From Amoebidium appalachense (taxonomy: Eukaryota > Protista > Ichthyosporea), in the NCBI GenBank assembly GCA_963693365.1, contig CAVNZM010000006.1, positions 10,667,355-10,731,354 on the forward strand: a stretch of DNA of 64,000 bases. Direction: 5' to 3'. Made by a program: the position numbers and the translations under genes. The notes beneath the pieces are model-generated. The model worked only from the letters and a program-made list of their open reading frames with translations. It was not told where the DNA came from and searched no databases. Positions within the stretch are counted from its first letter, which is position 1; each line of letters begins with the position of its first letter. Positions 2,554 through 56,976 of the stretch are shown piece after piece.

Positions 2554-2716
2554 TTTGAATATAGGAGCTGTTGTAAGGTAGGAGACTCGTATAGATAGAT
2601 TGACGTGTGGACTGAACTGAACCGCTCTGGCTTCCTTTGCTTATGTACTCAAAATGTTATCAATACTGACGTTTAATTGGTGAATGAGCTGCAAACAAAT
2701 CCGGAAAAAACTACCC

Positions 2717-3075
2717 AACGTAAAGGTACTACGGTGATATTAATTATCATGCACATACATAGTAGCAAAAGGGGAATTGTGTTCGACCTACAAAGGTGTG
2801 TTTTTGCCGTGGGACCCTGATACTCTAGGAGCACAATCCCCATCCCCCCTCAATACTTTGTGGGTAGTATCTCGTGCCATAAGCTGTTATGTGGGTATTA
2901 ATAGAAAAAAACAATAACGTAAAGGTACTACTGTGATATTAACATGCACATACATAGTGGCAAAAGGGGAATTGTTGTTCGACCTACAAAAGGTGTGTTT
3001 TTGCCGTTTGACCCTGATACTTTAGGGACACAATCCCCACCCTATCCGACTAGGTTGTAGGGATATAACGTGCCA
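2717..3075. repeat. Diverged direct duplication, ~160-bp unit, ~200-bp period
   Basis: aacgtaaaggtactac.gtgatattaa...catgcacatacatagt.gcaaaaggggaattgt...gaccctgatact...cgtgcca occurs at 2717-2879 and 2916-3075. Confidence 0.9.
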
Positions 3076-4017: not shown

Positions 4018-5412
4018 ATGAAGCCAGGCTGCCCTAAGGGCACAACACAGCGCCCTGGGCATAAAACAGGCGGAGCTAGGGAGGGAGCTGGGCGCAAAAA
4101 AAAAGATGCTGCATTTGTTCAGCCTTTAGCGAACTTTGCAGGTTTTGGGACGGCAAACAAAGCTGTTTTGCAGGAACTAAACGTAAACGTACAACCCGAA
4201 CAGCCCCCTCTATCTAAGGCCGCCGACATAAGGGCCCGTGTAGTTGAGGCAGGTAGCGTCCATTCGTTACCAAGAGAAATGGATCGGGCCCCTGCTCCAC
4301 ACCCACCAGACATACAGGTGCAACCCGACGAGGAACCTTTGCTAAATGCAGCAGCAGATGCGTACCGGGTAGACGAGGATGAAGGGGAGGAAGAGGGAGA
4401 AGATAATACGGACGGGGATGACGGTGGAGAGGAGTTTTCTGACGCGGCGGGCGAAACAATCAAGTCGCACCTGCACACAGTGAAAGAGAGTCTCAAAGAT
4501 GAGAAGACGCCTGTGGGGTGGCATCTTCCACCTCCCATTATAGGCTTTAAATTTGGGGGCGATCCAGCGCCTTTCTACAAACCCAGATGTTTTGCCTGGC
4601 TTCCGGAAAGGTTGTCTCCCGGTTTCATGGTGCCGTGCCCCTTCGATGATCACTACGTGGACCCCCACAACCACCCCAACCCACACCGTACTTCTCGCAA
4701 TGGGTTCATGAGCAACCCCGTAGGACGGCGTGTTATCGACTTTGACAGCTGCTACTACATTATCACGGCCCGGTACTTTTGTGACACATGCAAAAAAAAC
4801 TTTGCCGGCACAAACCCCCAGACAATTAAACGCCTTCCACTCTTCATGCGTGATCAGTTTCCGGCCTACCTTAGCCACCGCAGTGGGCTCGACCTAAAGG
4901 TGGTAACATTGTTGCGTGCACTGGCAGACAAAGGTGTGGGCCCAAACGCCTTTGCCACCCTCCTCTCGGAGCTCCACAAGCAGCGATACGACGAGCAGCG
5001 GCTCCTGTATTACTCGAGGGCGCTGCATTGGACCAAGTATGAACTCAAAAAGCGTAACGATTTCCGCCCCCACGACCAGCGCCTGACAGAACTTCCCCCA
5101 GAGGAGCAGGCGGCTAAGTTCTCGGCGTTTGGTGACAAAAATGGTTACGCTGGACATGTGCCTTCAGGCAAGTGTGCACTGCATTTTGGGTGTGTAAATG
5201 GTCCCCATTGTTTTGTATGCACGTGCTTGGGCATTTTTTGGGTTGGCTTGGTAGGGTTTTGTCTTATTATTTTTTATTTTTTTTTTAGGGGGGGGGGGGG
5301 GGACTTGGAAATGGGTTTTGGAAGTGTGGTCAATAAGTTTCTATTATGGTGGTGGTGGATGTGTGGTGGTGGATGTGCGCCTGTGAGTGTGCGTGTACTT
5401 GTGGGTCCGTGT

Positions 5413-5443
<31 letters not shown>

Positions 5444-5526
5444 GGGGAGGGGGGGAGGGGGACATGGTGATGGATTAGGTGGTGGTGGTGGCAATCAGTC
5501 ATGGTGGTGGTGGTGGTGGTGGTGGT

Positions 5527-5560
<34 letters not shown>

Positions 5561-5709
5561 GGGCAGAGGGATCATCAGAGGGGTGAAAGCATAACGGTCC
5601 ATGTACCAGTGAGTGTGCTTGGGAAATCGTGGAGAACTGTTATGCCTGAAATTAGATGGTGGGTGTGCGCATGTGTGTCTGTGTGTGTTGGGGGAAAGGA
5701 GGTGGAGAG

Positions 5710-5751
<42 letters not shown>

Positions 5752-5937
5752 GGGGGCACATGGTGGTAGACTGGATCTTGGTGGCGGTACTTAATGGTTA
5801 TTATAGTAGTGGCAGGAGGGTGTGGGGGGAAGGGCAAACGGACGTGCAGGGGACAAACTGCAGATGGGGCACAAAGGGGAAAGAAGGTGAAAGTTGGTGC
5901 AATGACTTGGAGGGTTTGCGCGCGCCGGGAGGCGGGG

Positions 5938-5973
<36 letters not shown>

Positions 5974-6407
5974 AACGGCCGGAGATGGGTGTGTAGCGTT
6001 TTTGAGATGGGAAAAGCCATACAGACTTACGAAAATACAGAGAGGTGAGATGAACACGAGGGACTAGAGGGAATGGGGGGGATGGTCCTGATGGGAGGGT
6101 GGTGGAGTTCTAACAGTACTTGGGGTTCAGGCAAATACCTGAGTGCCGTGTATACTGAGTTCAGCGACCGCACGGCAAAGTACCAGAGCCTGGACACGCA
6201 GCTCAAGCCCGTAAACAACGTGCTCAAGGCCGACCACACCTTCCAAATTGGGAAGCTCACCGGCATCAATGGGGAGCCTCTGTACCGAGGCCTATGGACT
6301 TGTGTAAACGAGCTTGGCGGTGTGTGGTCCCTCCTCTTCTCCCCCCCCTCCCCCCACTCTCCCCCAGGCCCCCTTCCCCCCCCCTCCCCCCCCCCCACAC
6401 ACGCCCA

Positions 6408-6438
<31 letters not shown>

Positions 6439-6696
6439 ACACGCCCCCTCCCCCCCCTCCCCCCCCCTCCCCCCTCTAGGGCCTTTAAATCTCTTAGGCT
6501 CCACATTTAATGAGGTGGCACACTGTGAGTAGAGGTTTGTAGTATGTGGGTTTTGGGGACAATTCTTGCCCTGTCGAGCAAAAACTAGGAAGCTCCAGAT
6601 ATGTGTGTATGTGTTTTTGCTGGGTAGAGATTGGGGTGGGCTGGGGTGGAGCTTTCTTTTGGCGGGGGAATCGGGGGGGGGGGGGGGGGGGGGGGG

Positions 6697-6732
<36 letters not shown>

Positions 6733-8223
6733 AGCTTCTGCCAAGCAGAATGGGAGTAGGGGCCAGTGATTGCAAGGGATGCAGGGGGGGGGGGGGGGGG
6801 GGAGAGACACCACCGTCGGGGTTGAAGGTAGAGAGGGCAAGAGGCCCGGGGTGGGGTGGGGGGGGGGGGGGGGGACAGTAGGTGCCATATGGAGGGCTGT
6901 CCCATGGTTTGGGGGGAGGGGGAGTGGGGAAGGATCGTGGGCACATGGGTTTGGGGGGAAGGCAGAGAGGGGGAAAGGATTGTGATCACAAGGGTTTAGG
7001 GGGAGGAAGGGGGAAGGATTGTAGGTACATGGGTTTAGGGGGGGGGGGGGGGGGGAAGATTTTGGGGGAAAGGGAGGCCTGGGGAAAGTATGTGGGCACA
7101 TGGGTTTGGGGGGAAGGAGGGGGAAGGGTTTTGGGGGAGAGGGAGGGGAAAGTATGTGGGCACATGGGTTTGGGGGGAGGGAGGGGGAAAGGATTGTGTG
7201 GGCACTGAAGTCTCGTGAAGGGCCATGTGGTAAGGGAAGCTAGAACATGCATGGCTGCTCGGAGATGCCCTCTCACACAGTGCGGCACCCCAGAGATCCG
7301 GGCGCAGGTATTTACACGGGACTGCAGCCACCAGGAGATTGAGCCCGTGATCCAGCGCATCTCTGCCACCACGGCGGCGCTCAACAGCAAGGGCCCGGCC
7401 TTCTTCTACACAGATCGGTGCTGCCAAGACCGGGCGTTTGTTGAGCGCATGTTTCCAACCCTAGCCCGGCCAAAATGCCCCGTCCGTCTGAACGAGGCTG
7501 CGCTGGTAAGCGTGACGGACGGTCTGCCTGGGCTGGAGCTGCCGGCCAACTACCCTAAGCCGGTGTACACCGACTGCCAGGGGGCGGTGGTGGCTACAGC
7601 GGCCATTCGTGCCGACCTGGAGGGGCAGCAGCACCGCGTGGTGGGGCTGGACTGCGAGTGGGTCTATCGGGTGGGCCAGGCGCGGTCCAAGGTTTGCACG
7701 CTGCAGATTGCCACCGCACGGGCCGTGTACATCTTCCACTTGGCACGCATGGGCCCCAACCACAGCCCGCCCGCGCGGCTGGTGGACGAGCTGATTGCGC
7801 TGCTTAGGGACCCCAGCATCATCAAGGTGGGCAAGCAGATCGGCACGGACTCGGCCCACCTCAACAAGGACTACGGCACCCCTGTGGCCAGCTATCTGGA
7901 GCTGGGCCGGTTCTGCTATGCCCGTGCAGCTATCACCTCTGCGGCCCGGGGCTTGGCCGACATCACTGCCCAGGTCATAGGCAAGAAGCTGCCCAAGCCG
8001 GCACTTGTTCGATGCTCCAACTGGCACGAGCCGCTATCAGAGGTGCAGGCCACCTACGCTGCCCTTGATGCATATGCGTCCCTGCAGGTCTACTCGGCCG
8101 TGGTCGATAGGCCAAACCTGTCAGGTGTGTATCCCACCTGCTTTTTGCCCCAGTGCTTATGTGCTTATGCCAGATATAGAAAGATTGTGGGCCCCCCAGA
8201 GGAGGAGGGGGAGGGGGAGGGGG

Positions 8224-8268
<45 letters not shown>

Positions 8269-10056
8269 GGCTGACCACATGGGCCAGTGTTCCAGTTGTG
8301 TTATTCTGGGTGTCGGGTGGCTATCAAAGGAGGGGGTGATTGGTGGTGGTGGTGGTGGTGGTGGGGGGGGGGGGGGGGGGGGGGGGGGGCTATAGCACTG
8401 TTAACACGTGCAAGTGCCACACAAGCTGGGCACTGGGAGAGGGGGGGGGGGGAGGGAGAAGGGGGGGGGGGGGGGGGGGGGGGGAAGGGGGGTTGCTAAG
8501 GAATATGCATTTGATTTTTGTGGAGCGAAGAGAAAAACGTTGGTGCTGTGGCTTTTTGGCTGAGTTTTTTGCTTCCCTCTATGACATGCAGCGCGGCTTC
8601 ATGCAAAGGCACTCGGTGAAGGGGTTGAGATTGTGCCCCGGCGGGGCCCACATGCTGCAGCAGCCACCGGGGTGGTGCTGGCTGTGCAGCCGGAGCGCTG
8701 GGGGGGCATGAAGGTGGGCAAGAAGCATGCAGTGGTGCGGGTGGATCAGGTGCTGTCGCCGGCCATGCAGGTGCCCTTTGGCCCCGACAAGGGCAAGACC
8801 CTGGGAGAGCTGGGCCCGCCGCCCTTTGAGCTGATGGTGCACCTGCAGTGGCTACGGCCCATTCAGCCCCCACCGGACCCAGGTGCCGAGGTGCCGGTGG
8901 TCCCTGACCCAGCCCCTCCCCCTGCCAGTCCTCCCCCTGCCGAGCAGCAGCAACCCCCTTGCCGGCCCACAGGCACCCCCCCAGGACCCCCAGGCAGCCC
9001 CGGGGGGCCTTGAGGCAGCCCCAGGGGGACCCGAGGCAGCTCCCAGAGAGGGCATGTTGGGCCAGGCACCGCCTGGGGAGGTGGTGTGGCAGACTGTGCT
9101 GAATGACGCCTTCCACTCCATTGCAAACACGGCGGACGGCACGTACAAGTCACACCCCCGCAGGGCTGAGTACGCACGCGCACTCAGCGAGGCAATATTT
9201 GTGTGGAATGAAGAGGATTACGGACATGTGAAGGTGCCCCCCCCCCCTCCCCCCCCCCCCCCAAAATAAAAAATAAAAAATAAAAATAAAAAAAACGGCA
9301 ACAACAACATGCGTGACTGACGCGCACACACACATACACTCGTTAGCACACACTCACCATTCCACCCACAACCATGCACACCTTCGACAAAACTTCTGAG
9401 GGAAGAGAGAGAGCCTGAGCCTCAGAGAGAGGGGGGGCAAGGGGGGGGGGGGGGGGGGGGGGGGGGAGGGGGGGGGAGGGGGGGGAGGAGAGTGGGGGTT
9501 ATTCATATGCCTAGAGAGAAATAATGTAGGGTTGTGGGGGGAAATAGCCACATGCATTTTTTACTTGTGTTGGGGGAGAAGATGGGGGGGGTGGAGGGGA
9601 GGGGTCCTACAATAACGGCAGGTATCAAAGTCTACCAAACCCAAATTGCAGTGTGCGTAGTAAATTAATATTGGCATCCTGCCTCACAGGGGGTGCTGGA
9701 GCAGAAGGGCATCGACATTGAAACCGAGCTCAAGGGCGGCGACCTGAGCTACTTCATGGAGCGCATCCGGCGGGTTATTCCCGACCCATACACGCTGGTC
9801 TCGCGGCTGGTGGAGTTCAAAAACACCTACAAGGATGTGCCGCCCGGACCGGATGGCAAGCCTCTGTTCAAGAAGGATGGCTTTGAAAGACTCGAGGCAA
9901 CATCCCCCCCCCCCCCCCCCCCCTCCCCTGCAGGCGCCCAACAACTCCACCACCACAGAAAAGATTCTTCGCTTATTTGTCATCCTTGGTTCATCTGCAC
10001 ACACACGCACACCCTAGCCTCCCCCCCCCCCCCCCCCCTCCCCCCCCCCCAAACAT

Positions 10057-10130
<74 letters not shown>

Positions 10131-10202
10131 CCCGCACGGCCCTTGCTGCCTAGCCAGTTGTTTTTTGCCTTTCCCTGCTCGTTTTTTTCCTTAGCAACCC
10201 CA

Positions 10203-10241
<39 letters not shown>

Positions 10242-11924
10242 ACCACACACACACACACACATACACACACACTACCACCACCACCACCCACCCATCTCTC
10301 TGATGTTTGCTTGTGCCCCCACAGTCGCTGCTCGAACACGCCCAAAATGGCTGTCTGTCGGACCCCCCCCGGCCTGCCCCTCTACTACGAGACCACTGCC
10401 GACGCAGATGGGCTCATGCGCTACCGCTGCATCCGGGGCACCAACGAGGTGGAGGGGGCAGTGCACAACCCCCTGGCCACCCACTTTGGGGCCACACGCA
10501 TGTCGCTGCGCCTGCTGGACGCCACCATGTCCAATAGGCGCCACCGCCACAACCTGCGTGCACACTACCGCAACCGCCTGGGCCAGGCATCGGGGCCCCC
10601 CCACTACAGCCCCTGGATTGTTGACGACATGGAGGCACTGGCGCTGATGCTGTACGGCCATCACCTCGACCCCCAGTGGGTACCCGTAGGCTGCTACAAG
10701 CTACCGGAGGAGTACTTCAACTTTGCCCCGCTCTCCTGTGTGGCCAATGCCCCGGCGCAGGAGCCAGTTGCGGTGCCCGCACCCCCACCTCCGTCTGATA
10801 ACATCGAGCCTGCAGCCAATGGCGTGATGGGCGGGCCAGAGGACTGTGAGGTCGAGGAGGGTGACGGTGCTGCCATGGGGGGGGGCAACCAGGTGGCGCG
10901 TGGTGCACCACAGCCGGACCCTGCACTGAGGGGCGACTACAAGTTCCTGGCGCAGAAGCAACATGTGGCCATCCCCTTCCTTCCGGTGCTTACCCCTCAG
11001 GAGCGCAAGCTATTCAGCACGCTGCTCCTGGGCACCTACAAGGCACATGCAAAGCCCAACGGCCAGCTGTTCGAGGCTTTGGCCCAAGACTTCAACAAGG
11101 CTGCCTCTGTGGCTGGGGGAATCTACATGAAGGATGCGGCCTACATCAAGAAGCATTTCGACAAGTGGAAGACCTGGCAGACGGCACATGCACAGCGCTC
11201 CACACACGAGGGCCTGGCAGATCACCGCAAGCGTATGCGCGAGGAGAGGGCAGACGCTGTGCCAGCAACCATACGGCCTGCCCCCTTGCCACCCCTCCCT
11301 GTTCCAGACGGTGTCGATGCAGGGGCGCAGCGTGAGCGGCCCTTGCCCATGCTAGTGGGCAAAAAGCATCGCAACATTGGCCCTGAGGGGCCCCTGCAGA
11401 TGGATTTGCCGGTGCCCCCTCCTATGCAGCCACCCCAGAGAGCCCCCAAGACCTGCAAGACGTGTGGCCGCCAGGGCAAGGGCTGCCCCGGCTCCAATCG
11501 GGCCAAGAGCTGCCCACGTTGGGTTGCAGCCAATCAGGATGCCATGCCACCAGCACCCGCGCTTGACATGCAGCAGGGCCATGTGCCGCACATGCCCCCT
11601 GCACCCCATCCAGGCCCGCACCACCCACATGGCTGGCCCCCACCGTGGGGCATCATGCCGCCTCAGCCCGGCCCTGCCTTCCCCATGCCTGGGCTACTGC
11701 CGCAGCACGGTCCCCATCCTTACTTGGGCCATGTGGGCCAGCCCTCGGCTGGTGGGCAGTTCCCACCCCCTTCTCGTGCATCTGCTGTGCTGGGCCTGGC
11801 GTTGCCACCTGCTGGAGAGACGCAGCTGCAATGGCACGATCGAAAGCAAAGTAATCGTGGCCGCAAGTCTGCAGGCAGCCAATCAGGATCTCAGAGTAGT
11901 CAGAGTAGCCAAACTAGTGTCTAA
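4018..11924 (+). CDS. ~1538-aa DUF6729-like / MULE-type DDE transposase-like protein with an inserted DEDDy (WRN/EXD2-like) 3'-5' exonuclease and a C-terminal zinc knuckle
   Basis: Exons 4018-5167, 6131-6319, 7294-8124, 8592-9233, 9690-9896 and 10325-11924 join in phase; introns 1 and 5 are GC-AG. Motifs: GGAREGAGRKKK; CPF..GRRVIDFDSCYYIITARYFCDTC..FPAYLSHRSGLD; LKADHTF (D1); FYTDRCC (D2); exonuclease VGLDCEW / GTDSAHL / YAALDA; LNDAFH (DxxH); GCLSDPPGLPLY; RGTNEVEG (E); CKTC..GC..C. The model needs two single-base removals in homopolymer runs (~8950-9010 and 10363-10370). Confidence 0.8.
6900..7206. repeat. G-rich minisatellite (~45-bp unit, about 6 degenerate copies) in intron 2 of the transposase-like gene
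   Basis: Recurring gggcacatgggtttggggggaagg...gggaaaggattgt / gggaaagtatgt. Confidence 0.8.
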
Positions 11925-17150: not shown

Positions 17151-17880
17151 GGGCACCGGAACCACTACTTGTGAGGTCAATCGTGTGGGTTTCCACACAG
17201 ATCCAAGGGGGGAAATTCTATGTATGGAGAAAACAGGTTAAATGCAGGAGACGGATGAGGAAGGTGCAAAGAGGATAGCCGGGGACGCGCCCAAAATTTG
17301 TGTGTGTGTGTGTTGGGGGGGGGGGGGGGGGGGGGGGAGGGGGGGGGGGATTTGAATGCGGAACACAGTACGAAGTACGCATACACGATGAGAAGTATGG
17401 TGCAGGACACATGCAAAGGCAAACATTCAAGTATGCAACATCAGCCATGCGCACAGTATGCGTCATAAGCAGAGCCCATCCTCAGGGAGGGCCCAAGTCA
17501 TCAATTGCGTCTGAGTTTCGACCCCTTAGCCCGCGTATATACGACGCTCCAACTCAGACAGCAGCATCAACTGAACTTGGGTGGGTCAACCCGTCTTGAT
17601 CAAAGACGAGCAGGGTTGCTTATGCAAGCAAGGTGAGCAGAACGGTGAAGATGTGTGTGCAAACTAATGCAGTGCAACGAAAAACGCGTATGTGCTTACA
17701 GATGCACGACACAGAGCAACCATGCCCGGTTGCATGGAAGTAAAGATGTCTGGAGGGGGGGGGGGGGGGTTAAAGTACGAAGTAAACATTCATGACGGAC
17801 AACATAATACAAATTGCAAAGCAGACACAAGAATATGATAAGAGCCCGTCCTCGAAGGAAGGAAGGGGGAAAAGGGGCCG

Positions 17881-18259: not shown

Positions 18260-19357
18260 GGGGTTGGTTCAACGAATCAAGCAAGCAGTAAATACATAGA
18301 TGCAAAACTCCAAAGGTGAGGCAGAACTAGGCAATAGGGAGAACCGGGGTTACCCGGCCGCGGGGGGGGGGGGGGGGGGGCAGGCACAACGGATTGAAAA
18401 GTTGGTGGAAGATGGGGATGAACGAAAAGAATAGGGGAAAGGGGGAAAGGGGAGGATTTGATCATGATTTTGGCCCCCGGGGGGGGGGGGGGGGGGGGTG
18501 GGGGGTGGGGGGGGTGGGGGGATGGTGCAAGCACGTAAAGGAAGTGATAGCTGGACAAAAACAAGCAAAACCCCGAAAGAATGTGGGTGACGGACGAGGG
18601 AGGTGGGGGACAAGGGGGGGGGGAGGGGGGGGGGGGGGGAGAGAGGGGGGGGGGGGGGGGGGGAGGGGGGGGGAGGGGGGGGTTCTATCAAGCGTGGTGC
18701 CACCCCTTATTTGGAAATAATCGGCTACTGCCTCTATGACATGAGCATCAACACATCTCACACATACCAAGAGCCACCACACACACACACCAGTATCTGC
18801 CCACCAACCTGCCAGTAGCTCCTATCGGCAAACACATGTCTACAAAGCGCAAACGGAGTCAAACGCACTCTAGCATAGGCAAACACACACCTACTATGCG
18901 GACATACACCCACCCATCAAGCACATACACTTAATAAGTACCACCATGCTCCCACCCACAAAGCACACATAACAAACATTAGCATGGCTGCACTAAAAAG
19001 GTAAAAGCACACACACCTACGAAGGACAAACACCGACATCCAAATAACCCCCCCCACCCCCCCACCCCACCCACACACCCACCCCCCTCCCTCCCTCCTC
19101 CCCCTACTCCTACCAAGCATAAGCACGCAGATCTGCTAAGAACAAACGAGCACCCACCCACCATGACAAGAAAAGACACCTACCAAGTACAAAGCACACG
19201 CCAGGGTGACTGACACGGATACACACACGTGCAAATAGCAGCAAACACACCTACAAGCACACACACACAACTATAAGCACACCTACAAGTGCACACACCC
19301 TCACACATACACAACACACACACACACACAGACACACACATTCTCTTTCTCTCTCTC

Positions 19358-19427
<70 letters not shown>

Positions 19428-19698
19428 ATACACAGCACAACACACACACACACACACACACGCGCGCGCACGCGCGCGCGCGCAGATCTGCCAAGAACTA
19501 ACGAGCACACGCCCACCATGACAAGCAAAGACACCTACCAAGTACAACGCACACGCCGGGGTAACTGACACGGATACACACAAGTGCAAATAGCAGCAGA
19601 CAGACCTACAAGCACACACACACAACTATAAGCACACCTACAAGTGTGCACACACACACACACACCCACACACCCACACACCCACACACCCACACACC

Positions 19699-26435: not shown

Positions 26436-28540
26436 TTTCTTTTTTTTTTTTGGAGGTCGGGGGGAAGGGAGGGAAATGGGGAGTTGCTTGGGGGAACAAA
26501 CGGTTGCAAAAGGGATAGAGCGCAGGGGGGATGGGGGGGAGGGGGGAACTGGGATGAGGAGACGGATACCCTTCAAGCGGCTCAGACGGGGCAGTCCCAA
26601 GCACAGCGGGGGCACTTGGGGGCTGGGCAATGAACGGCTGGTATGTGGGTACCCCGGGGCCGTACGGCGCAGGTAAATTGGGGGGCGGCCATGAATAGAC
26701 CCCCGCAGGGTGACCTGTGGGGACCATGATGCCGGGCACTGTGGGGTACATGGGGGCCAGGAGGGGCTTGCTCGTGGCCATGGCCCCCCCCAGTGTGCTT
26801 AGCCCGGGGGGAAGGCCGGAGGGGCCGGGCTGAGAGCTCCCGGACATTGTGCGTGGTTTCTGAGGCATCCGTCGTATATGGGCAAGAAGGTCCGGATGGT
26901 TGCGCTGGAAGTGCGGATGGCGAAAGATGTTGGGGTGCTTGCGCCCAAAATGCTTGTAGCCGTTGACCTGGGGGGGTGGCTGGGTGAGATTTCCGTGCAT
27001 GGTTGGTGCATGTTGTGCACAGCTGCAATTGCTGTGTCCGCATCGAACCTACTCTAGGCTCTGATCCATATGGGTAGCCGTAAAATAGCGTGCGACAAGA
27101 GTTGGAAAAACACATATCCATTGTTTTAATTTTCACTATGAAGCTCTCCCAAAAACCCTAGCTCTCGAAAACTGCAGTGCAAATCAGACCTCTGAGGTGC
27201 TCGGCGTGGATATGTTTCATTTTATAGCAGATATCCCGCATCTTGATAACAAGGATCGATAAAAGTCCGCATATAGCAACTGCATCAAACACAGAGGAAG
27301 TTTCCATACATGAGCTTGATAAATGCAAGTATATACATATGCACACACCCACCTGCCCTATCCACATACACCCACACGTCACCACAAAAGAGCCAAAGCC
27401 AAACGGATAGGGATGACACAAGAACACACAGAATCGTACACTCGAAAATAATGCCGTTTGACGACAAAAACAATACACGACCGAGCAGTGATATGGCTTT
27501 CACACCAAATGATGCCTTTAACTGCCTGCAAGCCCAGAAGTCATGACATGACTCCGGAACCAACACACACACAATATGGGGCTAAAAATTGGGCGCCAAA
27601 ATGAGTTGTGAATGTGACACTTGATTGTGGAATGCTATCTTCGAGATTTTGGCAGACTGCATGGCCGTACCGTTCGTGAAATCACGATCGCTGAGCTATG
27701 CAGTCGAAATGTTATGACCAAACAGACCAATAAATGTGAGTTTCAACGTAGATGAATGGTCAAAGTCTTCAGCTGATGACGCCACTGAAAACCACATAAA
27801 TTAGCTTTGAAGCGATACGAAATCGAACATTAAATTTTTAGCTCACTGCTTTTATGAAACGGAAACGCGGGTGTGTTAAAAAAAAAAAGACACTTACACG
27901 GTAGGAAAAGGAACAGGACATGAAACTAAGTGAATTGCTCTCAGCGACCCATAGTATTGCCACACACTGTGACACTTCACAAACAGCACAGCGCCACAAA
28001 AGTCGACACACAATATGCACAATGCTTCACACCACGCATAAAAATCACACGTGCGTGTAATCCACACACACACACACACGAGCAGACGTGACACGGACAT
28101 GCACGCTCGTGCAACATGCACATGCATGGCACGCTCGTGCAACATGCACATGCATGCAGCTGTTACAAAACATGCTGCAATGTGAACTGGCAATGAAGCA
28201 CCGTGCCCCAAAAGACAAACACACAACCTTAGCACAAATGCACAACCGAAGAGCCCCGCGCGCACACACACACACTGAAACAACAAACGTGAACATGTAC
28301 CTTGTTGAAGCCGTACATGTTGAGCTGCCTCACAAACGAGGTGTAGTTGCTCGTTTTGAACACGCTGTTGGCGCGCCCAAGGACGCGCTGAGTAAACACA
28401 TCTGTGTCTGGAATGACAACGCACGAGCCATCTGGGGACCACGTTATTGCATCGGAGTAGCTGGCATCGCTGACGAGGGCATGAAGCTTGAGGATGAACG
28501 TCGGGGTGCTGCTCTCTAGGATGAAGTGATGTGTACTCAT
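25395..28540 (-). CDS. HSF-type DNA-binding-domain transcription factor, 490 aa, 3 exons
   Basis: Exons 28540-28301, 26967-26570 and 26229-25395 total 1473 nt, in frame. HSF signature FILKLHALVSD..AITWSPDG..FKTSNYTSFVRQLNMYGFNK|V..FRHPHFQRNHPDLLAHIRR, with the intron at the position typical of HSF genes. Pro/Gln-rich tail. Confidence 0.9.
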
Positions 28541-30874
28541 ATGTGCTGGCCATAGGGCGCGGTCACATGGCCCTGGTGTGGGGGTGGGGTTTTGGCTGGT
28601 CTGCTACGTCTCTCTGTGAGAGATACGGCTCTGTTTTTGGTCGGTCGGAGTCTCATTAGCGCTACGCTTGGGCGTGGAAACCCACGGCCCGCACGGGGTT
28701 GCAGCAGACACCCCACACGTGCCCCTAAAGCTTCTGACCACGCCTATGCCCCTAATTCCTGGTTCCCTCGCCGTGTGTGGCGGCATGGACAATCCTGTTT
28801 GACCGAATTACTGTGTGCTTTTGAGAGTTTAAAATTCCCTGCTTTGGTCCTGCAGCCAGTTAAAAAAATGCGACTGCCTTGTGTCTCCAAATTGACAACA
28901 TACACCACACAATTGCGTAATGCAGGTTCCCTCCAAATGAAATGTAAACAGCCTGCCACTGCACCTAAATTACTGCACCTCGCTCCTATTTGTCCTTTAA
29001 CATAGTGCCCATTAATAATGACCTTATGGCCTGCATTTCTACACACCCAAGCGCGGGTGGGACGCTGCTATCCCGCTGAAAACGCAGGAGACGAAAACGC
29101 AAAACATCCCCCTACCGTGGGTGGGAAGGGCAATGACGGAGAAGTGAAAGACAGTGTGTAATAAAACAGACCATCCACAAAACCCCGTCCTGCCTCGGCA
29201 ATGAGCCTTTTACGCTACGCAGATCCGATTGGTGGAGCCAAATTTCTTAAGTTGCTGTGTGTGGGCGCGGCAAGAGGTCGTGCTTTCCGTTTAGGACATT
29301 TCACAATGAGTTATTTCGACTAACACGAGAGCTAGCTAAGCACCTAAATTTCGAAAATTCAGCATAACACGCTTATAGAATATAATGGACCTATATTTTT
29401 AGTGTTTCGTAACATAATTGGCGAGGCTGCTGCTAACCAGTTGTAGAATGCGGGGTTAGTGTCAATAAACTCTGGGCAACATTGATTGGCTGTTTATCAC
29501 GACAACCAACTGCTCACCTTATAGCCAATCAATCGTGACAAACCTGTATCCAATCGGAAATAGGCAGGTGGAACGTTCGCATTCTCCTGAGATCTACTCA
29601 GGAGGCCGCGCATGTTGCCGTCTGTGGCCCGGACACATAAAGTAGCACATGCCAACATAATTAAAACTTAATTCATCACATCTATAAACAGTGCGGGGGC
29701 GCAAGTTAGCGGCAACTGGAGCCTATGGGGCTCCAAGGATCACCGAAAGGACAACAAACCTTGGTGTTATGATATCTGCCTGTTGCTGCCGGGCGATCTA
29801 TTTGCGTGTAAGACAGAGGGGGGCAGGAATTCAAATAGATCACTACACTTCACAGTGACGCAGCCACACAGGTAACTAATTGTTGTGCTGTTGTGGATAT
29901 GGTCGTCATGCATGCTGCCACAGCGGGCACATAATAATGTTTTAATCCTCTGTCCGGATATCCGTTTGCCAAAACTTCATATTGTAGTGGCTTTACCGGC
30001 CTGGGATTCGACATTCTTGTGATCCGTCGGCCACCGTCGGACAGCTGAACCGTAGCCGTTAAGTTCGAATGTGCACCGAATACAGAAAACCGACGTGCAA
30101 AGTAGGACATCTGCTACACCACTATAGCCCTGCAAAAAGGGAGATGAGCGTTTATTGTTCTCGTTTCCCGTTGTATTTCCTAAGTCAATATGCTATCTTC
30201 AAGAACGTGTTGCATCTATTGTAGTAAGGCAACGCGACTCAACAGAGACCGACGTCGACGCTGCATATTTCAGAGTGGACACGTCATGACATCAATCGTT
30301 TGCCCCCTTCTAGATCGCGCAATGATTGGCTAGCCAGCTAAGCCATATTAGATTACAGTAAAACTGAAGCCAAAATTTCAGCCAATCACATAAAACGAAA
30401 ACTTTATGTGCAGTTGTGTACATTGAATGCAGACATGACTTGACTTATCAAACAAACTAATTAGGTCCTATCGAGCACGATATATCGAGCTAAGCTAGTC
30501 TATAGATAAGCTGATTTTTAGAACGTAATATGGCTATTCTTCTGACATTATATTAATAATACGGTCAAATGCTTCATTTCTGACCCATGTAGATTGCAAA
30601 GACATGGGGATTCCTATTGGCGCCCTGTTTACTACCATCGGCAGCCAATAGAAAGTCGCCGCACCGAAGTACATGTGCTTTTACGCCAGCCAACCAGTTG
30701 AGTGCATGTGTCTGAGAATTCCTCAAGTTGCCCATTTCGGAATAACAGGGTCTCTACCCGAAACAGTCACTTTTGAGGGTGATTATATCGGGATGTGAAA
30801 CTATCGGGTTGTCAATAGAGGGTTAGGGGAATCTATTTGCGCAAACCGAGAACATGGGTTGCGTACCTAGCTCA

Positions 30875-31308: not shown

Positions 31309-31510
31309 TTTTCCGAACTCTACTCTATTCCGGGCTCAACGACAAAAATGCCCTACGTGTCAAAGTGTGTGTGAAAATGTTTGCTGACGGCTGCATACCT
31401 GCACGTTTTCTGTTGTTTTTTTTTCGGCGGGCACGGGCCGCGCCAAAACCGCAAACAACCTTTATTTGATACTGGCCCTGCTCGTTCAAATTCAACCGGG
31501 TGATATATAT

Positions 31511-31729
31511 GACACTGACCCATTATTCACCCAAGTGTTGATTTTCAGACTGGTACCAGCTTATCGAGAACACAACTTCATATTTTTGCATGAGAATGTT
31601 GTGGGTTTCTGGCCGTGATATGACACTGACCCATTATTCACCCAAGTGTTGATTTTCAGACTGGTACCAGCTTATCGAGAACACAGCTTCATATTTTTGC
31701 ATGAGAATATTGTGGGTTTCTGGCCGTGA
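31511..31729. repeat. Near-perfect 111-bp tandem duplication
   Basis: gacactgacccattattcacccaagtgttgattttcagactggtaccagcttatcgagaacaca.cttcatatttttgcatgagaat.ttgtgggtttctggccgtgat starts at 31511 and again at 31622, with 2 mismatches. Confidence 0.95.
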
Positions 31730-31879
31730 TCACGATCGAGGCATTTTTTTTGAGGGGGGTTGGGGGGGGGGGGGGGGGGGGAGGGAAAGAAGGAACTGGG
31801 CCGGGGGGGGGGAAGGGAGAGAGAGAGAGAGAGAGACTCGGGGGGAGAGAGAGAGAGGGGGGGGGGGGGGGGGGAGAGA

Positions 31880-33342: not shown

Positions 33343-45309
<11,967 letters not shown>

Positions 45310-47573: not shown

Positions 47574-48705
47574 GGGGCCACACACACACACACCCAAACA
47601 CACTTCTGGGTGTCGTGGATGTCTCTAGAAATTTAAATTGCTTTCATCTAGCAACCCCCGTCCACAAATATCAACCAGCTTGTGCACTCCATTTTCTGCA
47701 TCAATAGTGTCCCTGGATTGCATCAGGATTCTGACACCCCCATCTGCATATCTGCATGGAACACCACTTTTCGAGTGCTTCTTCCTTTCCAATTGACCTT
47801 TTGCTGCAGTCACCCCTTTCCCATCCTCCACCCCCCGACCCTCTCTCTCCCTTTCTCCTCCCCCTTCCCCCCTCCCCTCCCCCCTCTCTCTTTCCCTCCC
47901 CTGGCCTACAGCCCCCTCTCGCCCTTCCTCTTCCTCGTCCTGTCGCTGCCCCCTCCCCTCCTCCCTCCCTCCCCCCCCCCCCCCCCCCCCTCCCCGCCTT
48001 TGCCTTTTCCTTTACCCCGAACTATGCACTGACTTGTGCCGTTGCAGTCAAGAAAGGTGACCGCATAGCGCAGCTGATTTTGGAGAGGATCTACATGCTG
48101 GACATCGAGAATGTGGAGGTGTGTATTTCAAACCCTGTGGTCCGTGCATAAGATGGCTGTGCAGACAAAAAGCTCTGCTTCCCTCACACACCGCTTCCTC
48201 CTCCCTACCTTCCACTGTTCTTGTCCACCCCGTCTCCCCTCCTCCTCCCCCCCTTCCCCTCGTCCCCATCCTTTATTCTGGCTCCGAAGCTGTGTGCCTA
48301 ACCTCCCCCCCCCCCGCGGGCATGGTTGCTCTGTGTCGTGCATCTGTAAGCACATACGCATTTTTCGCTGCACTGCATTAGTTTGCACACACATATTCAC
48401 CGTTTTGCTCACCTTGCTTGCATAAGCAACCCTGCTCGTCTTTGATCAAGACGGGTTGACCCTCCCAAGTTCAGTTGATGCTGCTGTCTGAGTTGGAGAG
48501 TCGTATATACGCGGGCTAAGGGGTCGAAACTCAATCGCAATTGATGACTTGGGCCCTCCCTGAGGATGGGCTCTGCTTATGACACATACTGTGCGCATGG
48601 CTATGTTGCATACTTGAATGTTTGCCTTTGCATGTGTCCTTCGTGTATGCGTACTTCGTACCGTGTTCCGCATTCAAACCCCCCCCCCCCCCCCCCACCC
48701 CATCC

Positions 48706-48739
<34 letters not shown>

Positions 48740-49339
48740 AAGCACCACCTCATCCATGCCCACACATTCCTTTCTCAACTTCGTGTGTTTTAAGACCACG
48801 TAGCATGCACACACTGAACAGCATCCCAGGGTTGTTGGTGAGAGTCGGATGTAGCATGCATTGGGAAACGGGAAGTGAAACGTAGGGCAGGGGGGGACAG
48901 GGGAGGGCGGGGGGAGGGGGAGGGGGGGAGGGGGGGGGGGGGGGGGAAGAGGGGAGGGGAGGGGGGGTGAAGGGGGAAGGGGAGGGGGGTGGAGGGAGGG
49001 GGGGGGGGGGGGGGGGGGGGGGGTGTGCAGGAAGGGACGGGATGATGATTGGTGTCCGTGATGGCCGAGGTATTGGCTTCATGTTCTTATGCTTGTCTCT
49101 GTTTTGTTTGTTTTGTTTTTTTTTCCCTTCTTTTTTTATGGTTTCTTTCGGATGTAGGGGCGGCAATGGCTAAGAAGAGCAGAGATGAGGAAGGAGGCAA
49201 GGTGGTGGCATGAGATCAATCATTTTTGTGTAGGCTTTATTGACATGTTTTTGTATTTGTGCAGGACTTGGAGGAAACTGAGCGAGGGGCTGGTGGGTTT
49301 GGCTCCACGGGTGGATTCCAACCACAGCAACAAAACTAG
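45950..49339 (+). CDS. DUT: dUTP diphosphatase (trimeric dUTPase), 165 aa, 5 exons
   Basis: Exons 45950-46089, 46298-46389, 47295-47414, 48048-48118 and 49265-49339 total 498 nt. All five motifs are present: [39 protein letters not shown]. Confidence 0.97.
48317..48678 (+). ncRNA. Structured non-coding element, copy 2 (core 48421-48581), sense within intron 4 of dUTPase
   Basis: Homologous over ~360 bp to 17351-17728 (minus strand), with the same stems. Ends cgcattcaaa followed by poly-C. Confidence 0.65.
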
Positions 49340-49791
49340 AATGTGAGCATGTGTGCATAGGCGTATGTGACCAGCTTGATGCAATATTATCCATGATCTG
49401 GGCCGTAGTTATGTGCATACCCCCACCGTATGATAGAAGAGAGGGTTTGCCTGGAGTCCGGGCAGACACTTAGTGTGTGTTCGCCGAGGGGGGGAGGGGA
49501 TGATCACACTGTATATCGTGATTTGTGTACAGGACGATTGCCCCGGACACCATACCTTCACTAATATTCGTAGCACGAGTTAATGTGACCGTGGTACCTT
49601 AACATATCATGGCGCGATAGTTATGAAGGATGTATCATGCAGTCAGTAGGTCTGCAGAGCTATCGATTAACTCTTCCAATAAAACAAAAATCAATCGACT
49701 CCTGCATGCCCATCTAGTGAAGTGGGAGAAGACACAAGGCAGTTGACTATGCACACACACACATAAACGCACACTCACACACACTCAATCT

Positions 49792-49871
<80 letters not shown>

Positions 49872-49881
49872 CACCCACTCG

Positions 49882-49927
<46 letters not shown>

Positions 49928-50153
49928 CTGCATGTACAGTGGCAATACATCTGGCAGGCGTGTGCACATTGACCATGCATAAACTCTGTATCCTAAGTTC
50001 ACGTGCAGTCCGCAGGCACATATCCATCTTAGAACGCAATTTGATGTTGGCCGTATAATAACTGGCCACTACACACCTGGCCTTATTATAACCACCGTTT
50101 CAACATACGAACTCATATCCCCATTCCCGTTGCACATGCAGTGAAAGCTATCC

Positions 50154-50187
<34 letters not shown>

Positions 50188-50431
50188 ACCACCACCACCA
50201 CAAAAAAAAAAAAAAAAAAAAAAAAAAAAGAAGAAGAAGAAGAAGAAGGAAAAAGAAAAGAAAAGAAAGAATAGGAAAGAGAGATAGAAAGAAGGGCAAA
50301 AAATGGGCCGCACGGTGACCTACAGCCGGAATAGGTCTCCGGAAGGCATAGGTGTCTTCTCCTCCCTCCATCTCCTATTTTTCTTGCTTCTGCTTACTGC
50401 TGCAACTTTAACCCCCGGCCTTTCCCACTGC

Positions 50432-50677
50432 CCTTGCCTGCATAAGCAACCCTGCTCGTCTCTGATCAAGACGGGTGACCTACCCATGTTCAAGTGAAAC
50501 ACTATCTGAGTTGGGTTTCGTTAACGAGGTGAATTAGTCGAAACTCGGGTACTGTGGATGACGTGGGCCCCCCCTGAGGATGAGCTCTGCTTATTATGCA
50601 TACTCTTTATGTATGGCTTGCATTCTGCATCGTGTTATCCGTTTGTTCTTGTGTTCGTACTTTTTGACGCATTCAAA
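50432..50677 (+). ncRNA. Structured non-coding element, copy 3 (diverged; core 50441-50594)
   Basis: Same conserved blocks (cataagcaaccctgctcgtct.tgatcaagacgggt, tctgagttgg, gtcgaaactc, gatgac.tgggccc.ccctgaggatg.gctctgcttat) with pair-preserving stem changes. Ends cgcattcaaa followed by poly-C. Confidence 0.6.
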
Positions 50678-50686
50678 CCCCCTCCC

Positions 50687-50735
<49 letters not shown>

Positions 50736-50988
50736 ACCACCACCACCACCAACCATCCCCTCCTCACTTCCAGGCCCCCCTCCCTAGGCCCTCCCGGCCC
50801 AGCATGAACGTCACTTTAAATCTGGGGTAGCACTTGTGCACCCCTCCCTCCGCCCTGGCCCACCCACCTACCCACTCAGCCACACACACATTTACACACA
50901 CATGCACCCAGGCACCCACTCATCACATTCATGTACGCACGAGTGCCCCCGCGCTTTCGCACACACATGTGCGCGCGCACACACACGA

Positions 50989-52930: not shown

Positions 52931-53723
52931 ATATCGTACTGTATAGCACACTCATAAGTCAGGATTCTAATTGACCCCAACTGGCACTATTTTTTAGTTA
53001 CGCCTTATCCCACGGTTCTAGCATACTGTACCCACACACTGTGTGTTTTTTTTATGGTGAAACGTTGGAGGCATGAGTATTAAGCAGCGTGAGTGTGCAA
53101 AAACGCCGTGTGACGGTCTTAGCCTCTGTTTTGGGAAGTTTGTGTGTTGTGTGTAAGCACAGGGGGGAAGTAATACAGCAGGGCCATTGGATACCATTGG
53201 CAACTGAATTCTCTGAAACTTTAAAGTATAGAATTATCTCCCTTCTTCCAGACCAACACATTGGCTGGCAAACATCGACTCGTGAGATTGATAATTTGCC
53301 GTGTACTTTTGCCGAATTCGTGTTGAAAGAGTAGGATGCGAGAATGGAGAGCAATGAGGGATGGGAAACTGAGGAGGATGACGACAAGGTGGGGAAGGGG
53401 GGGAGGGGGGGGGGGGGGGGGGGGGGGGGGGAGGGGAGGGGAGGAAGCGGGGGGAGGGAGGGTGAAAAGATTCCGGCATGCCCTATACATAGTCAAGATA
53501 AGAACATCGACATGCACTGAAACGGTGCGAGAAGTTTCAAGGAATGCAAATGTATGTCTTTACAACGAATTGCTCTGTACAAAGCTATAGATCCGTGGCA
53601 CTTGAGCACTACTAACTACAGATTATATACCAGGGACTATACTATATCGGGATTCACAATTATGTCCATGTGCATCCTGCATGTCGATGCCATCAAATTA
53701 GAGCCGAGTTTCGTTTGCACCAA

Positions 53724-54576
53724 CTAGACTCTGACAAAAGCCTGTGCGGCTGTGGCCGGCACCTCATCGCCAAACAAGACACTGCCGGGCCGCACGAGGT
53801 CAAGCCGGGCCTTGGGCACGGCCAGCGTGGCGTAGGAGCTCGCAGCGTGCAGCAGCAGCACGCTGCGGTCCAGCCCGCCCTCGCGCACGAGCCACTTGCT
53901 GTCCTTGACAAACCTCGCCAGCCCGCCCACCACGGCAGGCTTGTCCTCGGCGGCAAAGTGCGTCATGATGCCGGCCACGCTCAGCCCCGGCAGCTCGAGC
54001 ATGGCCAGGGCGTCGGCCCTGCCCTCCTCGCTGCCCACATCCAGCCACCTCCGCATGCCGCCCGACGAGAGCGCCACGTGCACAGGGACGGTGCTGTTGT
54101 GCCGTTGCGCCGTGTCCGACACCTCCTGGGCCACAGCCAGGCTGGTCACAAGCTCGTCCACACGGAGCCCCAGCGCAGACTCCACCTCGGCCGCGGTGGC
54201 GGGGCGAAGGCGAATGATGCGGCCGGTGAAGTTGCCGTCACGCACGGCCTGTGCCTCCGCGTTGGTGGCCACACCCACACAGGGGATGTCTGCGGCAAGG
54301 ATGGCCGGCAGCACAACCTCGATGCCCCACCCATAGGCGTTGTGCTTGAGGGCCGGGCAAATCTGTGGGCCAGCCTCGCCTAGAATGTCTTTGAGCGTGT
54401 CGATGTTCTGCCCGAATGCAGTGACTTTGGGCTGCAGGCTGGGGGCCACCGACGGAGGGGGTGGGGGCGGAGCTGGAAGCAGTGGGCGCAGCAAAGGCGG
54501 CAGTGGCGGCCAAGGCAAGGCCGAGCACGGCGGGGAGGAGGGCGCCGAAGGATCTGGAAGCACTGGAGCGGGTCAT
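53724..54576 (-). CDS. Secreted alanine-racemase-family (Bsr-like) N-terminal PLP-barrel protein, copy 1, with an apparent +1 frameshift in a C-run
   Basis: gccaccATG at 54576; signal peptide ending AAFA-AP; ICPALKHNAYG, GVATNAEA, VHVALSSGGM, GIMTHF, LHAASS, LDLVRPGSVLFGD. The G5 run at 54457-54461 has one more base than in copy 2. TATA at 54707-54714 and CCAAT at 54736-54740. Confidence 0.8.
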
Positions 54577-55522
54577 GGTGGCGTGCACGTAGAGCGTGAG
54601 GACAAAGTGTTGGTAAATGGAACTGGCGGGTATGGAGATTTGCTTTGGGTAACGCCTTGCGGAGGTTGTGTTGTCGACTAAAAGTATCCACTCTCGGGAT
54701 TCTCATTTTATATAGTTTTTGGTGATGTAGAATAGCCAATCAAAATGAGGACGTCTGCCGCATTGTTTACATTCCAAGTCACTGATCTAAAAATAGCACC
54801 CATGTCAAGATCTCGATTCTGAGCTCGAGGATCCGATATTACAGTATGTACATTGTAGCCTTACTCAAATCAGTGACAACTCTGCATTCAGCCTGAGCAA
54901 ATTCACCGTGTCAACGTACAGATATTCCTCTCTCTTACTCATCTATTTATATTCTTTTTTGCCACAAGCTGCAGCCTGTCTTTGATGCATGGGGGACACT
55001 GATTGGGGGTAACACCGCGCATTCCTGAGCACATTCCGAAGAAGTTTGACGTCACTGCATTCTCTGGCCGTCCCAAGCTTGCACAGGTCCTTGAATTGCA
55101 AGGCCGTGCAAGAACAGAGCCTGTTGCCATACAGCCTTACTTATATAAAAAATTTACTACTGTGTTATTTTGAATAAAATAAGGAGGAAGGACTGCGAAT
55201 TTCAATGATGGGCGAGCGATCTTACTTGCCGTTTGCAGCTAACTAGTGTTGTGCTGTCACTGCTGTGCTATTTTTATTCTGGCACAAGATCACGAATTGT
55301 AAACAAATACACAAAACTTTTATCAATCGTTTGATTGGATGCCCGTTCCACGCAAAAAGCTATATAAACTCCGGGAGTCAACAAAAGGCAACCAGTCAAC
55401 CATTCTCAGTTCCGAGGTCATACAGTACACACCTGTCAATCAGCGCCAACCTCCGGTTATCAAATCTAATTCTACCTACCATATCTCTTCTTGCACTCTG
55501 TAGTAGCTACGTGAACGCCACC

Positions 55523-56371
55523 ATGACCCGCCCCAGTGCTTCCAGATCCTTCAGCGCCCTCCTTCCCGCCGTGCTCGGCCTTGCCTTGGCTGCCACTGCC
55601 GCCTTTGCTGCGCCCACTGCTTCCTCCGCCCCCACCCCTCCGTCGATGGCCCCCAGCCTGCAGCCCAACGTCACTGCATTCGAGCAGAACATCGATACGC
55701 TCCAGGACATTCTAGGCGAGGCTGGCCCACAGATTTGCCCGGCCCTCAAGCACAACGCCTATGGGCGGGGCATCGAGGCCGTGCTGCCGGCCATCCTAGC
55801 CACAGACATCCCCTGTGTGGGTGTGGCTACCAACGCGGAGGCACAGGCCGTGCGTGACGGCAACTTCACCGGCCGCATCATTCGCCTTCGCCCCGCCACC
55901 GCGGCCGAGGTGGAGTCTGCGCTGGGGCTCCGTGTGGACGAGCTTGTGGCCAGCCTGGCTGGGGCCCAGGAGGTGTCGGACACGGCGCAGCGGCACAACA
56001 GCACCGTCCCTGTGCACGTGGCGCTCTCGTCGGGCGGCATGCGGAGGTGGCTAGATGTGGGCAGCGAGGAGGGCAGGGCCGACGCCCTGGCCATTCTCGA
56101 GCTGCCGGGGCTGAGCGTGGCCGGCATCATGACGCACTTTGCCGCCGAGGACAAGCCTGCCGTGGTGGGCGGGCTAGCGAGGTTTGTCAAGGACAGCAAG
56201 TGGCTCGTGCGCGAGGGCGGGCTGGACCGCAGCGCGCTGCTGCTGCACGCTGCGAGCTCCTACGCCTCGCTGGCCGTGCCCAAGGCCCGGCTTGACCTCG
56301 TGCGGCCCGGCAGTGTCCTCTTTGGCGATGAGATGCCGGCCACGGCCGCACAGGCTTTTGTCAGAGTCTAG
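55523..56371 (+). CDS. Secreted alanine-racemase-family (Bsr-like) N-terminal PLP-barrel protein, copy 2, 282 aa, intronless
   Basis: gccaccATG at 55523, uninterrupted to TAG at 56371. Same motifs as copy 1, with the PLP lysine in LKHNAYG. TATATAAA at 55361-55368 and ATTGG at 55334-55338. Confidence 0.9.
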   Translation: MTRPSASRSFSALLPAVLGLALAATAAFAAPTASSAPTPPSMAPSLQPNVTAFEQNIDTLQDILGEAGPQICPALKHNAYGRGIEAVLPAILATDIPCVGVATNAEAQAVRDGNFTGRIIRLRPATAAEVESALGLRVDELVASLAGAQEVSDTAQRHNSTVPVHVALSSGGMRRWLDVGSEEGRADALAILELPGLSVAGIMTHFAAEDKPAVVGGLARFVKDSKWLVREGGLDRSALLLHAASSYASLAVPKARLDLVRPGSVLFGDEMPATAAQAFVRV

Positions 56372-56976
56372 TTGGTGCAAACGAAACTCGGCTGTAATTT
56401 GATGCAGCGACATGCATGTAATATAATCCCTGGATATATAAAGTCTGTATTATAATACTCAAATGCACGGATCTATCTTTGTATCTAACTAATATTAGTC
56501 GTCATAAAAACGTACGGTAGACAGCTGCACAGAATTCTCGCTTGCATACATAGCCCGATATCGATGAGACTTCGTTGCATTTTCTCTTACCATGTACCGG
56601 TCCATGCTTAATGCATGAATCCTCTAACAAATCTGGACGTATACGTTGTAAATAGATCATGGTTATTGAATCCAGTTTTACAAAATCCCTCCCCCCTCCC
56701 CCCTCCCCCTCTCCCCCCTTCAACCGTACCCTCCCCCCCCTCCCCCCATTTCTTCCCTGCCTCTCGTCGCTCACGGTTCTCAGGCGTCCCAATGACTCTT
56801 AACGCCTGGCAATCGAGATTCTCTGTTGCAATATTTCCTTTTGCCGATGTGTTTCTGGAAGAAGCTAGGTTTTCTACTTCTTCTTTTTTTTTTTTGATTA
56901 AAAAAAAAAAACAAAAAAAAAAAAACGGTATGCAATGTGTTTGCGGTGCTACTGGGTACCTTTCTCTCCCCATTGA

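Follow-up and report, generated by a model that had tools for sequence, protein, structure and literature searches.

Genes and repeats in the window

The window, i.e., the whole 64-kb stretch of DNA analyzed here, has the gene structure of an intron-rich eukaryote. Exons of a dUTPase gene match PF00692, and intron 4 of this gene (48120-49264) contains a poly-C tract facing a poly-G tract (48678-49022). The minus strand carries exons of an NFXL-type zinc finger gene (34347-42689), with an exon that shows similar identity (48 to 67%) to plant proteins, animal proteins, and unnamed ones, and an exon of an HSF-type DNA-binding protein (28232-28603). For the HSF exon, no similarity matches were obtained, and its Atlas match read "Eukaryota" only. 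GC-rich coding stretches with poly-C/G introns between them occupy 3928-11921 on the plus strand and include DUF6729 (3928-5475) and a 3'-5' exonuclease domain (7209-8336); they likely form one large transposon-related gene. Two alanine racemase genes (53678-54592, minus strand; 55507-56416, plus strand) form a divergent inverted duplication at 96% identity. Both are intron free, have a signal-peptide-like start, and end after the N-terminal domain (PF01168), and the minus-strand copy seems frameshifted near its start. Their best matches are bacterial or unnamed proteins of 407 to 429 amino acids (47 to 51%). The two genes are candidates for gene transfer from bacteria.

Three repeats in the window, namely, a direct repeat at 19123-19340 and 19478-19696 (89% over 219 bp), a 112-bp tandem pair at 31507-31730 (98%), and a direct repeat at 2705-3042 (87% over 143 bp), are unrelated to the repeat that is the subject of this report. 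The latter occurs in three copies, each with a structured domain (Table 1).

Table 1. Coordinates of the repeat copies and of the predicted RNA elements within them
Feature	Position	Strand	Details
Copy 1, subfamily A repeat	17351..17760	-	~410 nt, amid poly-C runs
Copy 1, structured domain	17464-17624	-	
Degenerate 3' fragment of another unit	17775..17854	-	Adjoins copy 1 upstream; starts near GAGGA word; partial tandem
Copy 2, subfamily A repeat	48317..48670	+	Flanked by poly-C runs
Copy 3, subfamily B repeat	50383..50677	+	5' boundary uncertain
Copy 3, structured domain	50441-50594	+	
5' arm	48421..48457	+	Closing stem strand (pairs 48574-48581), GCUC strand, GUCU/AGAC hairpin; pairing predicted
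Partner of GCUC strand (predicted)	48568-48571	+	Includes GG after CUGAGGAU
Stem II 5' strand (proposed)	48458..48463	+	G48458 is G10.1; pairs 48520-48525
Stem II, copy 3 (proposed)	50477-50482 with 50534-50539	+	
Joining helix, 5' strand	48464..48473	+	Pairs 48545-48553, one U bulge; C-helix of kink-turn
Kink-turn bulged strand	48474..48479	+	3-nt bulge, then G and A facing A48544 and G48543
Block S	48486..48498	+	Stem III 5' strand, GUU triplet, stem I 5' strand GGAG
Predicted cut, copy 2	48494/48495	+	U17 is 48494
Predicted cut, copy 1	between 17551 and 17550	-	
Predicted cut, copy 3	between 50512 and 50513	+	
Variable linker with small hairpin	48499..48519	+	Length, 21 nt (copies 1 and 2) or 18 nt (copy 3)
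Block G	48520..48533	+	Stem II 3' strand, G12 A13 A14, A15.1, stem III 3' strand
C11.1	48525	+	
G12 A13 A14	48526-48528	+	
Joining helix 3' strand to extra U	48545..48567	+	
Stem I 3' strand, CUCC	48556-48559	+	
Core C3-A9, CUGAGGA	48560-48566	+	Followed by extra U

A high-copy dispersed family of noncoding repeats

The original prediction had described a structured RNA motif in three copies. All three are real: the three-block pattern matched three times in the window and in 0 of 100 shuffles. Copies 1 and 2 are alike at 92% across ~415 bp and represent one subfamily, and copy 3 is ~72% identical to them across ~340 bp, so the window holds only two independent versions. Copy 2 is shortened at its 5' end relative to copy 1. 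The degenerate fragment adjoining copy 1 aligned with the 3' part of copy 3 at a local score of 100 (500 shuffles: mean, 61.8; maximum, 84), with nhmmer E values of only 0.06 to 0.4. A weak nhmmer match at 43229-43378 was dropped as a further copy; it sits in a coding stretch.

Copies 1 and 2 are in the sense orientation within genes, the former between exons of a minus-strand gene with no Pfam match and the latter in dUTPase intron 4; copy 3 lies ~1.1 kb beyond the dUTPase stop. Each copy is closed by the same short word and then a poly-C run, with (C)n at the end of all three and (CA)n after it in two. Since the window contains 169 C or G runs of at least 10 bases (3,945 bases), many of them intronic, these flanks say little.

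The stretch, or part of it, is present in 20 of the 24 listed runs, with 3,625 variant contigs matching copy 2 in run X3 and 1,807 contigs matching copy 3 in run X4. Contigs of four runs were compared with copy 2 and those of four runs with copy 3; summed depth as used here is not copy number, and the depths of runs X14 and X20, both only guessed to be RNA, were left out, since contigs reveal neither RNA ends nor expression. Thousands of distinct short contigs, together with three copies per 64 kb, indicate that the carrier is a high-copy dispersed noncoding repeat of ~410 to 440 nt. In a 468-nt contig of run X17, the sole contig giving a tandem period, the start recurs after 438 nt, which fits a head-to-tail array. 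The window itself contains no full dimer, and a partial upstream copy is found at copy 1 only. Long contigs of runs X4 and X14 differ from copy 3 (50396-50680) at ~25 positions with few or no gaps, suggesting a third subfamily. In one X14 contig with a loose end, the C-rich linker before the core is lengthened.

All hammerhead letters in a noncircular order

Judged from its letters, the motif carries the entire hammerhead core in the noncircular order cleavage site, GAAA, CUGAnGA (blocks S, G, and C), i.e., the order of the type-SGC hammerheads. The core words are invariant in the three copies, in each of which C3 U4 G5 A6 N7 G8 A9 reads CUGAGGA and directly follows CUCC or CCC. With pairs counted by coordinate, stem III has 9, 5, and 9 bp (including A15.1-U16.1) in copies 1, 2, and 3, respectively, and the NUH triplet, GUU, is followed by a stem I of 4, 4, and 3 bp. 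GUC and GUA are stronger triplets than GUU. C11.1 is invariant, and a G partner for it is available either from a 5' strand or after an insert. The subfamilies differ by two-sided changes in stem I (A-U to G-C at the third pair) and stem III (G-C to A-U); these and the two-sided changes given below compare only two subfamilies.

We wrote a descriptor after the sequences had been seen, with at least 4 stem III pairs beyond A15.1-U16.1 and at least 3 stem I pairs. On both strands of the 64-kb window it matched exactly the three copies. It matched 1, 2, and 1 of 20,000 dinucleotide shuffles of the respective copies and, when both core words were kept fixed, 256, 309, and 222 of 20,000 (1.1 to 1.5%). 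The motif is likely a working self-cleaving hammerhead.

The nested, circularly permuted block order of the classical types I, II, and III was not found in the motif, and the Rfam hammerhead models gave no match. The whole window yielded 0 Rfam matches at the gathering threshold, and the 8 weak matches obtained at an E value of ≤10 in 48200-50800 overlap none of the copies. In single-sequence folding, copy 2 had a z-score of -3.2 and copy 3 one of -0.5; the structure is therefore not evident from nested folding alone. Copy 3 has private letters at two stem II positions (50535 and 50536) and one position of the long stem (50502), where the majority letters restore the pairs.

The original prediction had dismissed the hammerhead while listing its CUGANGA and GAAAC words, and in this it was wrong; those words form a complete core in a noncircular order, and the undescribed class that it envisaged is instead a known ribozyme class with a new wiring. 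Its general reading of a selected, pseudoknotted RNA on this strand was right, and it rightly listed a ribozyme and a mobile-element scaffold among the options. The sequence bears out its closing stem, GUCU/AGAC hairpin, and long UCUGAG stem. Its main stems hold, with stem I missing from them (GGAG/CUCC; GGG/CCC in copy 3). It recognized the motif as repeated and overlooked the kink-turn signature and the high-copy repeat carrier. The proposed gggc/gagc change is visible in the window and private to copy 3 (G in ~99.7% of the summed depth at 50583, run X4).

A probable split stem II, a joining helix, and a predicted kink-turn

GGUC has two candidate partners, a GACC strand located 5' to the cleavage block and the strand that follows the core. 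The former pairing, already proposed as tgacc with ggtc, is supported by the comparison of the subfamilies. It gives 6, 5, and 3 bp in copies 1 to 3 (5 to 6 in subfamily A) and 6 Watson-Crick pairs with the subfamily B majority letters (run X4 summed depth: A in 97% at 50535 and G in ~100% at 50536). Pairs 5 and 6 show two-sided changes between the subfamilies, C-G to U-A and U-G to A-U, of which the U-A pair rests on majority letters from public contigs. Among the variants listed, the depths of two minority changes at pair 5, 50481 T>C and 50535 T>G, nearly coincide in each of two runs (13,346 versus 13,266 and 1,412.9 versus 1,410.9); this linked pair could stem from clipped subfamily A contigs. 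In helix-only energy sums, the 5' strand is favored over its rival by 4.6 kcal/mol (-26.0 versus -21.4) and 6.2 kcal/mol (-24.0 versus -17.8), loop and pseudoknot costs being excluded.

The CCCAAG/CUUGGG helix described by the original prediction, including its A-U to U-G change, is part of a predicted joining helix for which each of the three copies has 9 of 9 pairs, this change being the single two-sided one. Only with a stem II formed by the 5' strand does this helix connect stems I and II at their far ends. The connectivity is GACC(C/U), one base, and CCCA, and the partner UGGG precedes CUCC. A standard kink-turn signature, i.e., a 3-nt bulge and tandem G.A and A.G between two helices, is present in all three copies and is predicted to join stem III to the joining helix. 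The bulge is GUU (AGU in copy 3), and the next pair, 3b.3n, is U.U (A.G in copy 3). The standard kink-turn is defined with an included angle of ~50 degrees, and for copy 3 the 3n = G rule predicts ion-induced folding (PMC8191799). From the connectivity, the complete joining helix, and the kink-turn signature, we infer that a kink-turn closes a type-SGC ribozyme into a ring, which is opened again between A9(+U) and G10.1. That the active fold takes stem II from the strand 5' of the cleavage block, with the core opened between A9 and G10.1, is the arrangement that we consider probable.

A small hairpin at 50310-50340 on the plus strand, ~110 nt upstream of copy 3, repeats the subfamily B stem II strands (GGTGACCTA and ATAGGTC). 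It might be a decoy, or else a ribozyme duplicate that has collapsed.

Alternative readings

The motif might instead be an ordinary type-SGC hammerhead with an insert of 1 to 2 nt after A9, in which the 5' GACC strand acts as a masking off-switch or a branch-migration partner. A UG insert then gives a stem II of 6 pairs in copies 1 and 2 (three of them G-U); the UG after the core is invariant, resembling the published CUGAUGAUG descriptor (PMC10085705), and an off state would suit the copies in sense introns. With an insert of 0 to 1 nt, only 2 pairs form before a G.G at the third, and with 2 nt copy 3 has no pair at 10.1 and 4 pairs when the majority letters are used. In this helix, pairs 5 and 6 are lost through the subfamily B changes, which are compensated in the helix made by the 5' strand, and the contiguous stem II is the weaker one (-9.2 versus -12.8 and -5.6 versus -10.8 kcal/mol). 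It also leaves stems I and II with no helix tying them directly. In two passages from Naiad Penelope-like elements (PMC8557442 supplement), only C letters follow CUGAUGA, making a contiguous stem II impossible, so that stem II could come only from the 5' strand. We regard the ordinary type-SGC wiring as unlikely.

Somewhat less probable still is a hammerhead-derived RNA that no longer cuts, conserved through recent amplification or as a scaffold for binding a protein or the reverse transcriptase. Two copies lie in the sense orientation within genes, stem II letters have decayed in copy 3, and contig ends do not pile up at the predicted cut, an observation tempered by the fact that contigs cannot show RNA ends. 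Against loss of cutting, the core letters are identical in both subfamilies despite diverged linkers and flanks (72% over ~340 bp), and pseudoknot helices that matter only for the hammerhead fold are compensated. Coincidental hammerhead words in an unrelated kink-turn RNA (box C/D-like or U3-like) would account for the resemblance of the kink-turn strands to boxes C and D and, again, for two copies within genes. We hold this to be very improbable: Rfam gave no match, the motif lies in a dispersed high-copy repeat, and the hammerhead register is rare by chance. In comparisons by eye, the motif lacked the ordered blocks of U3 and other C/D snoRNAs, SECIS, telomerase RNA, HDV-like, twister, pistol, and hairpin ribozymes, SAM-I and TPP riboswitches, or tRNA-derived SINE boxes.

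Proposed mechanism

The explanation that we favor overall, and think reasonably probable, is a split-wired hammerhead with a kink-turn that cuts the RNA of a short nonautonomous retroelement at GUU. In the predicted fold, a type-SGC ribozyme would be joined end to end via the kink-turn, which would bend stem III back. The CCCAAG/CUUGGG helix would take the role of the SGC helix tying stem I to stem II. The resulting ring would open between A9(+U) and G10.1, the point from which the closing stem and the remaining transcript would hang. The RNA is likely cut at the predicted GUU site (Table 1), and cutting would free unit-length RNA (~438 nt) from head-to-tail copies. Reverse transcription of the unit RNA could then be carried out by an autonomous Penelope-like element, probably a member of the Naiad/Chlamys clade, with insertion presumably at C- or CA-runs. 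Copies in sense introns would be passengers in which cutting is probably slow or tolerated.

The carrier is likely a nonautonomous Penelope-type element, and the balance tilts modestly toward its derivation from Naiad/Chlamys elements. Its surroundings weakly match Chlamys habits, i.e., (C)n, (CA)n, and partial tandems. Among the 16 stretches of the window scanned with Pfam, none contained a reverse transcriptase domain. A more sweeping proposal joins three elements: a seventh wiring beyond the six thought possible (opening at A9/G10.1 and closure by a kink-turn); the missing ribozyme of the whole Naiad/Chlamys clade across eukaryotes; and a subfamily A U.U kink-turn that needs the host 15.5K/Snu13, i.e., a natural protein-switched ribozyme. 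Taken jointly, these are unlikely.

If correct, a natural, high-copy, covarying separation of the core from stem II would enlarge the range of folds open to a textbook ribozyme, and the split wiring would explain why Rfam and the published descriptors missed it. A kink-turn within a hammerhead would provide a ready handle for protein-controlled ribozyme switches. The repeat also offers a direct test of why Naiad and Chlamys elements thrive without a canonical hammerhead.

Searches for relatives

Pattern scans returned 1, 8, and 120 loci in viral contigs (the last scan covering 21 of 64 parts), 47 in metagenomes, and 1 in prokaryote genomes, with no relatives among them. For 48 of the pattern-scan loci, no BLAST similarity was obtained and the descriptor did not match (0 of 48). 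It likewise matched 0 of the 120 viral loci, which had been chosen for both words in S-G-C order, and inspection of the pattern-scan loci revealed no motif fold. In listings and abstracts of the open-access literature, we found no split-core, kink-turn, or genomic type-SGC hammerhead. The term "type-SGC" occurred there in one paper only, the supplement of which contains neither "kink" nor "k-turn."

Comparison with known systems

The Naiad consensus 3' motifs are annotated only as HHR_core or HHR_half_core in Craig et al. 2021 (PMC8557442), which describes Naiad and most Chlamys elements as lacking canonical hammerheads. Short-motif look-ups in its supplement led to 9 and 23 places, which overlap. 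By eye, four Naiad passages, two of them from closely related octopus elements, show the order of the present motif with other stem sequences: stem II strand, joining helix, S, G, joining helix, stem I strand, and CUGAUGA. The remaining looked-up places contained canonical hammerheads or nothing, and the narrow look-up found no split fold in the Chlamys passages of the supplement. The two octopus passages share the kink-turn signature, with the bulge on the 3' strand; in the present repeat it is on the 5' strand. The Naiad motif is compact (S-G linker, 2 to 3 nt), whereas the present repeat adds a closing stem and an extra hairpin. The likeness is one of order, as seen by eye in these passages. 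Chlamys elements favor (C)n and (CA)n and occur as partial tandems and nonautonomous head-to-tail forms (PMC8557442). The present repeat shares the short unit, and perhaps the partial and head-to-tail forms, with the nonautonomous ones but differs in its hammerhead, Chlamys elements being reported there without canonical ones.

Non-LTR retrozymes (PMC7229834; bioRxiv 10.64898/2026.07.22.740005) are likewise noncoding repeats of 150 to 450 bp with one hammerhead per unit. They occur as monomers and as partial and head-to-tail copies and are defined in these sources with type I hammerheads, whereas the present hammerhead is not of type I. The PK hammerhead (PMC11300833) also has a core held by a pseudoknot, but there A9 runs into a G10.1-C11.1 stem whose loop makes the pseudoknot, whereas in the present motif stems I and II themselves are the pseudoknots.

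Type-SGC hammerheads (HRIMA-1 and variants; Eckert et al. 2023, PMC10085705) were found by that study only in metatranscriptomes. The published ribozymes cleave in vitro at 0.007 to 0.19 per minute and depend on a fourth helix between stems I and II. Their alignment places one base and then a fourth-helix strand after the stem II strand, with the partner of that fourth-helix strand before the strand of stem I. In some of them, stem III connects directly with the fourth helix, even though the crystal structure shows the two far apart. That study assumed CUGAnGA and its stem II strand to be at most 1 to 2 nt apart; with block C taken as uninterruptible, six block orders are possible. Its descriptors fix CUGAUGA and allow an S-G linker of 0 to 8 nt and a G-C linker of 0 to 15 nt, and the present motif falls outside all three limits.

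The motif shares with the type-SGC ribozymes, as described in PMC10085705, the order S, G, C, the full core, the extra U after CUGAnGA, and a helix that ties the far ends of stems I and II and is entered after one unpaired base. It differs in its stem II strand, which here probably lies 5' of block S and splits block C after A9, and in an S-G linker of 18 to 21 nt with a hairpin, compared with ~3 nt. On both strands, the joining helix here continues into stem III through the kink-turn signature, and N7 is G. The motif also resides in repeats of genomic DNA, where the published survey (PMC10085705) found no type-SGC hammerheads. Because of the linker length and the probably split block C, we do not class the motif as a type-SGC member; its sequence suggests an RNA that acts like a type-SGC hammerhead from outside that class.
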